Below are positions 54,709 to 64,000 of a stretch of 64,000 nucleotides of DNA, one piece after another. The notes under the pieces were generated by a model. The model saw only the letters and a program-made list of their open reading frames with translations. It was not told the DNA's origin and made no database searches. Each line of letters begins with the position of its first letter. Position 1 is the first letter of the stretch. Origin of the DNA: Candidatus Micrarchaeota archaeon (GTDB lineage: Archaea; Micrarchaeota; Micrarchaeia; Anstonellales; Bilamarchaeaceae); NCBI GenBank assembly GCA_043821365.1, contig JBDRCX010000006.1:256001-320000 (forward strand). The letters run 5' to 3'. A program made the position numbers and the translations under genes.

Positions 54709-54806
54709 CGGGCCCGACGGGATTTGAACCCGTATCCCGAGGTATCTCCTACAATTAGGAGGGGCATTCGAAGCCTCGTCGGTTATCCAGGTTGCCAAAC
54801 GGGCCC
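54709..54806 (-). tRNA. tRNA-Arg(TCG) with a 24-nt canonical 37/38 intron (54744-54767)
   Basis: Acceptor GGGCCCG/CGGGCCC plus G73; D loop CCTGGATA (A20); anticodon stem CGAGG/CCTCG; T arm ACGGG-TTCAAAT-CCCGT. BHB with CTTC/GGAG helix and 3-nt bulges GAA and ATA. Confidence 0.92.
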
Positions 54807-55532
54807 TTTTTCTATCTTTATTTCTTTCCGTAGTATTGATAATCGTTCTGCATAAGTTGTATTTGGTGGGCAATGACCATATCTCATCCAAATGTCATAT
54901 CTACTAGATTTCACATGATTATTCATACCTATCATGTTCATCCATTTAATTGCTCTACCCCCAGTTATCCAAATTCTATATGCATTTGACCATTTTGAAT
55001 TTTGAGGGTATACAATATCGCTACAATGTCTAATCTCTAGACTATTAAGAATATCTTTTGTTTCATCAAAAAGAGATTTGGACGTAGTGGTCAAATTTAT
55101 CACTGGATAATAATGGCATGTTCTTTTGAATTCACGGTATTTTCCAGTACTTCGTTTGAACGAAAGTGATCCATCGGTATCAACTAAACCCCTTAAAAAA
55201 GCACATTTGATTTGCAAGCTTTGGGTCTTCATTATAAATTTGGGAATTGAAACAATGTAGCTTTTTCTACCATAAGGAAATCCTAGTGAATGCATTTTTT
55301 CTATTATTTTCTTCTCTCTAATAACGAATCCATATGTGCTTCGTTTAGGAAAAATTCTTCCATTGATTACAGTTCGAAAAACTTTACTAAATAGCGGAAT
55401 TACTATATTTCTATAGTAAATCTCTTCTTCTAATGAACCACTCACATCCAGCTCCCTATTATGGTTCTTATTTCTCAAATGGCCATCTCCAGCATGGATT
55501 CCACATATCTCTGCAAGTTCTATATCCCCCAT
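54783..55532 (-). mobile_element. Free-standing double-motif LAGLIDADG homing endonuclease; last 24 nt overlap tRNA-Arg
   Basis: LAEICGIHAGDG and AFLRGLVDTDGS motifs. C-terminal GPVWQPG* is encoded by tRNA positions 1-22 (stop TAA in the D loop). Confidence 0.9.
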
Positions 55533-55575
55533 ATCTGATACACAAATCCATAACTTATCTATTTTTCGGGGGACA

Positions 55576-55608
55576 CATCATTTCCTAGATGGTTTAGACC
55601 ACGGACCC
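55576..55608 (-). pseudogene. tRNA 5' fragment (acceptor 5' strand plus D arm), putative displaced tRNA-Arg start
   Basis: GGGTCCG-TG-GTCT-AAACCATCTAGGAAA-TGAT-G; GGGTCCG can pair with the tRNA-Arg 3' acceptor strand (one G-U); TATA-like TTAAATTA at 55643-55636. Confidence 0.55.
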
Positions 55609-55693
55609 TTGAGTTGATTGGCTGTGTAATGTTCTTAATTTAATCATCCTTGTGGTAGAGTGGTTAAAAATGTTTTTATATACTGATTGTATT

Positions 55694-62280: not shown

Positions 62281-62832
62281 ATGCGTTTGCCAAGTTTTAT
62301 TATCTATGCTCTATTTGCACTTATATTTGTTCTAATGCTCTTTATGGCATTTAATATTTTTGATCATACTTTATTACTTATTCTTATCACAATCGATATC
62401 CTATTATTTTTCTGTCTTCTCTATCTGTTCATCACTCAAAGATTATCAAAAGAAATAGATTTTACAAAATATCCAATTGAGGTTCCAGTGCTTGGCATGC
62501 ATGAAAGAGCAAAAATTCTTCCAGATTTTATCCTACAAGAGGATGTTAGTGGAGTTGCTCCGAAAATGGTTTTCTTTCAAGATCATTTTGAGTTCAATCC
62601 AAGTGCCATTGGTATCAGACCAAGAAATAAGCGTTATTCTGAAGTTGAATTGGTAGATGTTACTCATTTTTTGTTTATGGATACAGTTAAATTTACCTTC
62701 AAAGGCAATCTCGCTCTTTCTATTCAACTATTACACAAGAAAAATCTTATCCTGCTTCTTAAATTTCTTAACAAAAAAGGATGCATATTTTCTCCAAAGA
62801 CAAAAAAACTGCTAAAACAAAATCCTTCCTAA
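62281..62832 (+). CDS. Hypothetical membrane protein (two N-terminal TMs)
   Basis: Hydrophobic N-terminus and soluble C-terminal domain. Confidence 0.55.
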   Translation: MRLPSFIIYALFALIFVLMLFMAFNIFDHTLLLILITIDILLFFCLLYLFITQRLSKEIDFTKYPIEVPVLGMHERAKILPDFILQEDVSGVAPKMVFFQDHFEFNPSAIGIRPRNKRYSEVELVDVTHFLFMDTVKFTFKGNLALSIQLLHKKNLILLLKFLNKKGCIFSPKTKKLLKQNPS

Positions 62833-62861
62833 TTTTAATTTCTTACTCTCTTTATCCTATC

Positions 62862-62924
62862 ATGTTCAAACAAACAATTGTTGTTCGTGCTGATCTAAAG
62901 ATGAACCGCGGAAATGACGTCTAA
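62862..62924 (+). pseudogene. pth2: pth2 5' stub: 17 Pth2-like codons, then 3 unrelated codons and a stop
   Basis: Translates MFKQTIVVRADLKMNRG-NDV*; 12 of 17 residues identical to the downstream Pth2 N-terminus. Confidence 0.85.
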
Positions 62925-63909
62925 TCCTGTTTATAAACGACCAAAAATCTATTTTTTTATGAAACGATATTGGGATAAGAAATATTTGAAAAAACAATTA
63001 CGTGCTGGCAAGACTTATCTAACCATTGCTAAAGAAAATAATATCTCTAGTACTACTGTTCAAAGAGCATTAAATACATATGAGCTAACGAAACCAAGGT
63101 ACGATTGGAATCAGAAAGAACTCGCTCTTCTAAAACGATACTACTGCCGCACATCCTATCCAAATCTGATTCTACCTCATAGGACTTTAAGTTCTATCTA
63201 CCATAAAGCTACTCGTCTTGGTCTGAAAAGTTCTAATCATTTTAGGAAATATAAAATTAACACAAATTTTTTCAAAAAATGGACAAAATCGATGGCATAT
63301 CTGCTTGGATGGATGTTTAGTGATGGGAATATGGCGGATGATTGCCGTTCATTCAGATTAAAATTGGCGATTAAAGATCAAGGAATTTTATATGTCCTTA
63401 AGCGTGCCATGAACGCAAATGTTCCGATACGTGTTCATTCACAATTAGTTCCCTCTAAAAAATATTATGCTCAGTATGCTAATCTAAGAGTTACTAATAT
63501 CGAAATGTATAATGATCTCGTTCGCCTTGGGTGCACTCAAAACAAAGTGCACAAATTTATTCCACCCAACATTCCGCCAGTTTTTGTTAGTCATTTCATC
63601 CGTGGATATTTCGACGGAGATGGGTCTATCTATTTTAATAAACCTAATACTATCAGAATTAGATTCGTTGGTTCCAATCGTACTTTCATTCTTTGGCTGG
63701 CTACTTATTTTAATAAAAAATTGTGCTGTCCATTTAACTTCAAAAAAACTCCAATTGCAAAAAAATTATGGCAATGCGAGTATTATGGCGATAATGCACG
63801 TAATCTATGCAAGTGGATGTACCGTGGTTGTGAGAATCTTTATCTTAAACGAAAACGAAAACGCTTTATTGACCATCTGAAAAAGAGAATGTTATGTTCA
63901 AGCAGATAA
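62914..63909 (+). mobile_element. Free-standing double-motif LAGLIDADG homing endonuclease with N-terminal HTH-like region
   Basis: AYLLGWMFSDGN and HFIRGYFDGDGS motifs. The ATG overlaps the end of the stub; the stop overlaps the first 16 nt of intact pth2. Confidence 0.92.
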
Positions 63910-64000
63910 TCGTTATGCGGAAAGATCTCAAAATGTCTGTGGGTAAGCTTTTAGCACAATCTTCTCATGCGTCACTTTCAGCTTACAAAAAAGTCTCAAA
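63894..64000 (+). CDS. pth2: Peptidyl-tRNA hydrolase Pth2, N-terminal part (runs off the window edge)
   Basis: Hand translation [35 protein letters not shown] matches the Pth2 pattern KQ.IV.R.DLKM..GK..AQ..HA. Confidence 0.92.

Follow-up and report, generated by a model that had tools for sequence, protein, structure and literature searches.

The essential gene pth2 of a Candidatus Micrarchaeota archaeon is preceded, in the 64,000-nucleotide (nt) stretch of DNA analyzed here (the window; contig JBDRCX010000006.1 of assembly GCA_043821365.1, positions 256,001 to 320,000, G000:C6:256001-320000), by a gene for a predicted LAGLIDADG homing endonuclease, which itself follows a short orphaned copy of the pth2 start. 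The position of this endonuclease gene between a pth2 stub and a full pth2 restart is confirmed as a real feature of the locus. Very probably it represents a free-standing homing cassette, with neither intron nor intein, that has taken up residence at the 5' end of pth2. Comparison with related genomes shows what appears to be the mobile unit: the endonuclease gene together with a diverged replacement of pth2 codons 1 to about 17-20, which brings its own start codon. The parts of the locus in the window's own genome (G000), with the DNA past the window end given as L001, are as follows, the sizes of proteins being in amino acids (aa) and open reading frame being abbreviated as ORF.

62862-62924, plus strand: pth2 stub; ATG at 62862, reads MFKQTIVVRADLKMNRGNDV and ends at the stop codon 62922-62924, 20 codons
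62862-62914: part of the stub made of native codons 1-17 and two bases of codon 18; NDV and the stop follow
62914-63909, plus strand: LAGLIDADG ORF; 331 aa from the ATG at 62914, 316 aa from Met16 at 62959
63894-64000 and on to ~64244, plus strand: pth2 restart; diverged replacement of codons 1-17, presumably the functional gene
62398-62903, plus strand: left flank tract; 3' two-thirds of a 183-aa ORF, intergenic promoter, stub codons 1-14
62830-62841, plus strand: TATA-like box TAATTTTAATTT, the putative native pth2 promoter; centre ~27 nt 5' of the stub ATG
63864-63871, plus strand: candidate internal TATA-like element CTTTATTG within the C-terminal RF-I-x-HL codons of the endonuclease; ~27 nt 5' of the restart ATG

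Duplicated start of pth2

The restart ATG at 63894 is situated 16 nt inside the end of the endonuclease ORF, so that the two overlap by 16 nt at the endonuclease stop, and the gene that it opens is a complete 116-aa ORF extending beyond the window (L001 2595-2945), the product of which matches solved Pth2 structures over the full length (2zv3, E 4.4e-35; human Bit1, 1q7s; S. solfataricus, 1xty). Stub and restart are identical at 34/53 nt and 12/17 aa, with 7 common residues written in different synonymous codons. When all six frames of the window were scanned, no other 17-mer reached 8/17 identity to the restart, so the likeness is not due to chance. The counts given in the first-pass annotation of the window, which was made from the letters alone, were recomputed and proved to be exact throughout, including those for G or C at third codon positions (GC3; 4/15 in the stub, 7/14 in the restart, and 4/18 in the rest of pth2 visible in the window). 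The use of GC3 as a sign of an imported restart was nevertheless rejected, since the restart sample of 7/14 is too small to be read against 25/99 in the pth2 body and 87/322 in the endonuclease gene.

Origin of the stub and of the restart

The view that the stub is native, and still at its native locus, is supported by its close match to relatives without the endonuclease. The 40 nt located 5' of the stub ATG are identical (40/40) to those of the endonuclease-free genome G015, as are 40 of the first 42 coding nt, and over 53 nt the stub agrees with G024 and G015, both endonuclease-free, at 44 and 45 positions, respectively, as against 32 and 34 for the restart. The pth2 body of G000 agrees with that of G024 at 224/294 nt (76%) and 88/98 aa.

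Comparison of many alleles likewise supports the view that the restart travels with the endonuclease. A survey of pth2 in 90 genomes of the family contained 6 endonuclease-linked alleles and 84 without the endonuclease. Among the latter, 78 carry the motif R-[ANTS]-DL-x-MGKGK, and all six of the former carry RKDLxMSxGK, characterized by Lys10 and Ser15 (K10/S15); at the nucleotide level every one of them has TCN in place of the conserved GGN of codon 15, as well as a change to AAR at codon 10. Separate trees for the N-terminus and the body of pth2, which the first-pass annotation had named as its own test, gave the expected outcome, with the stub grouping with the relatives of the body and the restart with the linked restarts. 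In the tree of the body (residues 23-116), G000 is the sister of the endonuclease-free G024, and the six linked alleles need 5 changes, their placement in a single clade being rejected (log-likelihood difference, delta lnL, 172; approximately unbiased test, p-AU 6e-7). In the N-terminal tree (residues 1-22), the linked alleles need 2 changes and a single clade is not rejected (p 0.47); here the G000 stub is nearest to G015, G012, G090, and G024, which are its body relatives, and the G000 restart is nearest to G016, G150, G017, G088, and G111. The earlier reading of a native stub and an imported restart is thus borne out by the promoter and coding match to G015, by K10/S15 in 6/6 linked alleles, and by the trees. 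The five separate placements in the body tree argue for repeated gain, and the endonuclease-free alleles do not appear to be simple losses, because most of them are without the restart signature. It can be added that the endonucleases of G111 and G016 are 63% identical, whereas their Pth2 proteins are only 53% identical.

Endonuclease gene and its product

Judging from its motifs and its predicted structure, ORF 62914-63909 is a LAGLIDADG homing endonuclease with N-terminal helix-turn-helix modules. The Pfam match of the 331-aa ORF to LAGLIDADG_3 is marginal (23.0 bits at a cut-off of 22.5), with HTH_23 matching at the N-terminus, and two LAGLIDADG motifs are present, LLGWMFSDG (D137) and IRGYFDGDG (D236), both aspartates of which are invariant in an alignment of 22 homologs. 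The AlphaFold model, with a predicted local distance difference test score (pLDDT) of 89 and low confidence for residues 1-16, displays the tandem alpha-beta-beta-alpha-beta-beta-alpha fold of monomeric LAGLIDADG enzymes. Foldseek matched this model to monomeric two-domain enzymes of this kind with a probability of 1.00 for I-Tsp061I, I-AniI, I-SceI, and I-OnuI, the best fold match being the archaeal intron enzyme I-Tsp061I (2dch, E 3.6e-7), with the bI3 maturase, I-AniI, and an intein endonuclease (7qsu) ranking next. Between the endonucleases of G088 and G017, the ratio of nonsynonymous to synonymous divergence (dN/dS) is 0.13 and dS is 0.77, with a dS of 0.68 for their pth2 genes, values that point to vertical inheritance of this pair under purifying selection. 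With its two motifs and their invariant aspartates, the confident fold, and the low dN/dS of the G088/G017 pair, the enzyme looks active.

The first-pass annotation had placed the start of the endonuclease at the ATG at 62914, overlapping the end of the stub. This ATG and its ORF are present, but the true start is probably Met16 at 62959, where the conserved protein of the homologs begins; the public gene call P0001 has 316 aa, and the overlap of the ATG at 62914 with the stub may be incidental. The gene itself appears to be free-standing, neither intron- nor intein-borne: Pfam shows no intein or Hint domain in the endonuclease ORF, and no Rfam family, intron families included, matches over the 4.2-kb locus at E<=1. 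G000 contains only one copy of the endonuclease, plus weak intein-like matches. Among 5.8 billion proteins searched, the family comprises about 65 full-length relatives (E<1e-40, 38-57% identical), the source metagenome-assembled genomes (MAGs) of which are labeled as Micrarchaeota, Nanoarchaeota, or "archaeon".

Recurrence upstream of pth2

All of the family members examined (16/16, 38-57% identical) abut or overlap pth2, their sources being Micrarchaeota, Nanoarchaeota/Woesearchaeota, and Diapherotrites, and the genes neighboring the endonuclease in related loci carry PF01981. Within the order, homologs that are 50-54% identical are located directly upstream of pth2 and overlap it in G017, G088, and G016, all of the same genus, and in G111 of another genus, and in G100, from a third genus, a 46-aa remnant of the endonuclease C-terminus is found between stub and restart. 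More distant members (38-46% identical) occupy the same position in Nanoarchaeota (L042), Diapherotrites (L047), Woesearchaeota (L050 and L051), and Micrarchaeia MAGs (L048), as well as in the archaea L044, L049, and L052 and in contigs L206-L208. The stub is preserved to different degrees.

G000: 17 codons
G088: 15 codons, a 27-nt insertion, and CGC GGA AA
G100: 14 codons, no longer with a start codon
G111: 6 codons, reading in frame into the endonuclease
L048: 17 codons, joined in frame to an endonuclease that carries a frameshift
L042, L047: about 22-23 codons
L050: 18 codons by nucleotide local alignment, perhaps 28 by in-frame comparison (less certain)
G017, G016: only a CGGAAAT remnant
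L044, L049, L051, L052, L206-L208: none recognizable

Since pth2 is intact in loci that have lost the stub (G017, G016, L044, L049, L051, and L052), the restart ATG must be the functional start and there is no need for splicing. A series of decay is formed by the remnant in G100, the frameshifted gene in L048, and a stub in G112 that has no endonuclease beside it. In this last genome (L144, G112:C29:31800-32981), the gene in use is an intact pth2 that resembles the endonuclease-linked allele of G111 from codon 18 on. It is preceded, at a distance of 238 nt, by a 31-codon pth2 stub similar to the native alleles of G109, G110, and G113; no endonuclease separates the two, and the arrangement looks like the footprint of a lost cassette.

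Several observations concern individual loci. One TGA was flagged in the endonuclease match of G016, but it is located at the upstream edge of the match and the ORF is intact (313 aa), and the gene was not counted as a pseudogene. In GCA_043800955.1 (L043, that is, G088), the public annotation of pth2 is too short, with the internal Met14 (MSCGKM...) taken as its start, because the true start overlaps the endonuclease gene; the cassette has here given rise to an annotation artefact. In G091 (L134, G091:C7:60547-61452), the pth2 match covers residues 24-116 only and the upstream frame reads unrelated residues, so a frameshift or a rearrangement may have affected its 5' end; the same contig has a different LAGLIDADG ORF ~2.5 kb away.

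Breakpoint, flanking tract, and co-occurring populations

In G000, G088, G017, G016, and L048, the stub ends with GGN AA and then T, inside codon 18, an end that is common to the Micrarchaeota elements. Lys18 aligns with the lysine of GKGK in the S. solfataricus Pth2, which is reportedly an active-site residue (Fromant et al., 2005, a study cited in PMC4929431). The stub homology of other lineages is longer, reaching about codon 22-23 in L042 and L047, codon 31 in G112, and perhaps codon 28 in L050. The earlier claim of a break inside the catalytic Lys18 codon therefore stands for the Micrarchaeota elements but not for other lineages, where the stubs run to about codons 22-32, and because of this difference a link of the break to the catalytic role of Lys18 is unproven. 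The most conserved nucleotides of the endonuclease-free alleles are those of codons 14-22, which fits an endonuclease target within these codons.

On the left side of the junction, the tract 62398-62903 of G000 is 93.5% identical to G015 (473/506), with a dS of 0.16 in its coding part, and its last 71 nt (62833-62903) agree at 69/71 positions. About 1 kb further to the left the identity is 71.8%, and dS is 0.60 in the 5' part of the same 183-aa ORF; the identity of the two genomes is 74% in the pth2 body and 75% in the downstream gene. The end of the tract coincides with the point where the stub departs from the native sequence. Both co-conversion during homing from a G015-like donor and an ordinary exchange that stopped at heterology would fit these values. 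As a further difference between the two genomes, pth2 and the downstream Ser-hydrolase gene are ~900 nt apart in G015 (L009, G015:C8), and by blastn this stretch is missing in G000.

The assembly was checked against Logan contigs of three public metagenome runs, X1-X3, from groundwater and biofilm and from two studies, one of which runs may be the source sample of the window. The junction of stub and endonuclease is bridged with 0 differences in X2 (62818-63250), X1 (62858-62942), and X3 (62858-62976), and that of endonuclease and restart, also with 0 differences, in X1 (62918-64000), X3 (63080-64000), and X2 (63288-64000). Other contigs in X1 and X3 match 62858-62903 with two differences and then continue with GGAAAAGGAAAGCTTGCAGCACAATGTTGC, which corresponds to the uninterrupted G015-type allele. 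Carrier and non-carrier populations therefore co-occur, both types of allele being found in the contigs of X1 and X3, and the populations of G000 and G015 type that are found together there could form a live pair of carrier and non-carrier. The same two runs show the G015-type left flank (variants at 62737-62817) alongside the cassette-bearing population.

Proposed mechanism

In the mechanism that we favor, the enzyme would cut endonuclease-free pth2 within the conserved ATG GGN AAR GGN AAR YTN GCN GCN CAR of codons 14-22, and the break would be repaired from a cassette-bearing allele, whereby the endonuclease and the replacement start come to separate the native 5' end from the body of the gene. 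The native 5' end would remain on the native promoter as a dead stub. At the presumed target, the replacement start has TCN for GGN in codon 15, and it has AAR in codon 10, which would make the rebuilt gene immune to cutting. Gains of this kind would have taken place several times within one Micrarchaeota family, and the element also occurs across DPANN lineages. Later decay would erode the stub and degrade the endonuclease while the replacement start persists.

The endonuclease would probably be expressed from the captured pth2 promoter, with reinitiation after the stub ORF as one route. The spacing of the TATA-like TAATTTTAATTT, ~27 nt from the ATG, is also found upstream of endonuclease-free pth2 in relatives and implies that the native pth2 transcript is leaderless or nearly so. 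The stub ORF stops between the two candidate starts of the endonuclease, 10 nt past the ATG at 62914 and 35 nt short of Met16, and translational coupling between stub and endonuclease is plausible. In G111 and L048 the reading frame of the stub continues into the endonuclease, a fusion which suggests that the endonuclease exploits the promoter and the start of pth2. The synthesis of Pth2 would probably begin at the restart ATG, for which three routes can be considered: coupling to the stop of the endonuclease, a Shine-Dalgarno motif, or an internal promoter within the 3' codons of the endonuclease. Consistent with the last of these, a TATA-like hexamer is present ~27 nt before the restart ATG in G000, G017, G088, G016, and G111 (within the RF-I-x-HL-KKR codons), and the loci of G017, G088, G016, and G111 are GC-richer and yet have these A/T-rich hexamers at the same distance. 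In G100, L047, L048, L050, and L051, GGAG-like Shine-Dalgarno motifs are found 6-10 nt before the restart ATG.

Alternative explanations

It has to be noted that a number of observations weigh against a homing cassette as described above. The position of the junction differs by lineage, so that a single insertion point is not established, and ordinary recombination limited by heterology would also end at the junction, either G000 or G015 being a possible donor in the exchange. The closest database relative of the G000 endonuclease is only 57% identical, which leaves no donor that could be named, and the endonuclease of the G088/G017 pair has co-diverged with pth2 (dS 0.77 vs 0.68); the G000 copy may thus be old and vertically inherited. 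The N-terminal tree rests on 22 columns and is weak on its own, and the common K10/S15 could partly reflect convergent selection for resistance in place of co-transfer. Six alleles with Ser or Thr at position 15, mostly with Lys10, occur in G129, G128, G142, G150, G121, and G151 (L150, L153, L154, L161, L167, and L183), and no endonuclease, stub, or remnant was found within 330-500 nt upstream of them; they may be resistant alleles that were left after loss or made by gene conversion.

The strongest rival explanation, though an unlikely one, is that of a domesticated or vertically inherited relic that no longer homes and is kept for the dependence of pth2 on read-through or as a DNA-binding regulator of pth2. 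The distance to the best match of the G000 endonuclease, the co-divergence and purifying selection of the G088/G017 pair (omega 0.13), and the rough tracking of Pth2 identities by endonuclease identities on a broad scale are all in keeping with such a relic, as is the overlap of the restart with the endonuclease stop in every locus, by which a simple deletion would endanger an essential gene. However, both catalytic aspartates have stayed invariant, degenerate copies do exist (G100 and L048), and the endonucleases of G111 and G016 are closer to each other than are their Pth2 proteins. The patchy distribution, with its 5 changes on the body tree and with endonuclease-free alleles that are without the restart signature and hence not simple losses, also speaks against a relic, and so does the young recombination tract that abuts the junction.

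An intron, either of the bulge-helix-bulge (BHB) type or of group I, or a translational-bypass element, with the stub as the first exon, would have to join 62914 to 63947 and give the peptide MFKQTIVVRADLKMNRGK. The stub has kept the native promoter and start, the homology stops cleanly inside codon 18, and archaeal LAGLIDADG genes are classically intron-borne, but the explanation is highly improbable in view of a complete in-frame replacement start, of the lack of any Rfam intron match at E<=1, and of a stub codon 15 that is already mutated from Gly to Asn. In addition, pth2 is intact in G017, G016, G100, G088, L044, L049, L051, and L052 even though the stub of these loci has been deleted, has no start, or is interrupted, and it is because the stub is lost or broken in so many loci that an archaeal BHB intron in particular is unlikely. 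An assembly artefact, in which two co-occurring populations were joined across their common 5' region, is still harder to believe. One 70-nt node (62818-62887) is indeed identical between the G000 and G015 types of the same samples, and the Logan contigs break at it; yet both junctions are spanned by contigs from three runs and two studies, 15 other assemblies show the same arrangement, the stub has changes of its own in codons 15-16, and the G015 assembly independently pairs the other type of left flank with an uninterrupted allele. The chimera that the first-pass annotation had named as what would undo its reading is therefore not what is seen.

Implications

If the homing-cassette reading is correct, a homing endonuclease can reside within an essential protein-coding gene of a cellular chromosome with neither intron nor intein, by carrying a replacement of the part that it displaces. 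We would tentatively extend it, with somewhat more doubt than confidence, to a general splicing-free way in which homing endonucleases colonize essential genes of DPANN archaea, a "5'-end replacement homing" in which the promoter is captured and a cut-resistant new start is supplied, and in which the cassette would be hard to lose because the expression of the essential gene depends on it. The cassette also offers an explanation for puzzling annotations in DPANN genomes, such as LAGLIDADG genes that overlap pth2 and pth2 genes with truncated starts (GCA_043800955), and it suggests that the 5' ends of pth2, being chimeric, should be left out of phylogenies. The family of ~65 related meganucleases presumably recognizes variants of one conserved site, and the co-occurring carrier and non-carrier populations would provide a field system for watching homing in uncultured archaea.

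The layout with a duplicated start may be more general than pth2. A second, unrelated two-motif free-standing LAGLIDADG ORF (54783-55532, minus strand, 249 aa) lies 8 kb from the pth2 element and has 24 nt in common with the 5' end of a tRNA gene at 54709-54806 (L197, window 54709-55650), with a possible tRNA 5' stub (GGGTCCGTGG...) ~60 nt upstream of the ORF. Its homologs occur in G012 (67%), G108, and G099, and the one in G099 likewise overlaps a tRNA (Rfam, 42.6 bits; ARAGORN missed the tRNAs beside the homologs). If the same holds at the tRNA gene, the strategy would be common to several endonuclease families and not a one-off.

Comparison with known systems

In a full-text literature search of incomplete coverage, for homing endonucleases with Micrarchaeota, with DPANN, and in free-standing archaeal cases, no description of the arrangement was found; several known systems nevertheless share some of its traits. 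Like the free-standing seg and mob genes of T4-like phages, known for "intronless homing" (PMC2988022, PMC2790892), the pth2 cassette adjoins its presumed target and would spread by double-strand-break repair with co-conversion of the flanks. The phage genes, however, are intergenic, do not duplicate or replace the target, and belong to the GIY-YIG and HNH families, whereas the pth2 cassette is found inside an essential cellular coding region. With archaeal intron and intein enzymes (I-Tsp061I, I-DmoI, and the TliVMA intein endonuclease), the predicted enzyme shares the two-motif monomeric architecture and has its closest fold matches, but it has no surrounding intron or intein, it carries ~100 extra N-terminal helix-turn-helix residues, and its target would be the 5' end of a protein-coding gene in place of an rRNA or intein site. 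The "fractured genes" (PMC2677866) are also conserved genes of uncultured microbes with an endonuclease gene within them; their halves are joined by split inteins, whereas pth2 has neither split inteins nor a split product and is made whole in the DNA by the replacement start.

The closest likeness is to the mobile ORFs (mORFs) of fungal mitochondria that come with a replacement gene terminus, as in atp6 of Allomyces macrogynus, atp6, atp9, cox2, and nad3 of Glomus, atp9 of Rhizopus, and cox2 of Mortierella (PMC3630166). They carry a foreign C-terminal gene segment and leave the native C-terminus as a downstream orphan (PMC3630166), and partial duplications of atp6 and cob are described for Endoconidiophora (PMC6279837). 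The pth2 element can be regarded, by analogy, as the 5' mirror image, in archaeal chromosomes, of these C-terminus-replacing elements. In both, a free-standing LAGLIDADG gene (or a GIY-YIG gene in fungi), surrounded by neither intron nor intein, interrupts a conserved protein-coding gene, the end of this host gene is duplicated on both sides of the insert (for pth2, stubs are also seen in G088, G100, L042, L047, L048, L050, and G111), and the native copy left as an orphan resembles relatives more closely than the inserted one does (here 44-45/53 vs 32-34/53 nt). In both, the distribution is patchy, suggesting horizontal transfer, and the hybrid gene of pth2, like those of the fungi, is presumably functional. 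The replacement of a gene terminus has so far been documented for 3' ends and in fungal mitochondria. In contrast, the pth2 cassette replaces the 5' end and must solve the initiation of transcription and translation for itself and for its host gene, supplying a start codon and initiation signals and inheriting the host promoter. It also differs in that its host is the chromosome of a DPANN archaeon and not an organelle, and in that the whole endonuclease family, in 16/16 members examined, is devoted to one gene across several phyla.

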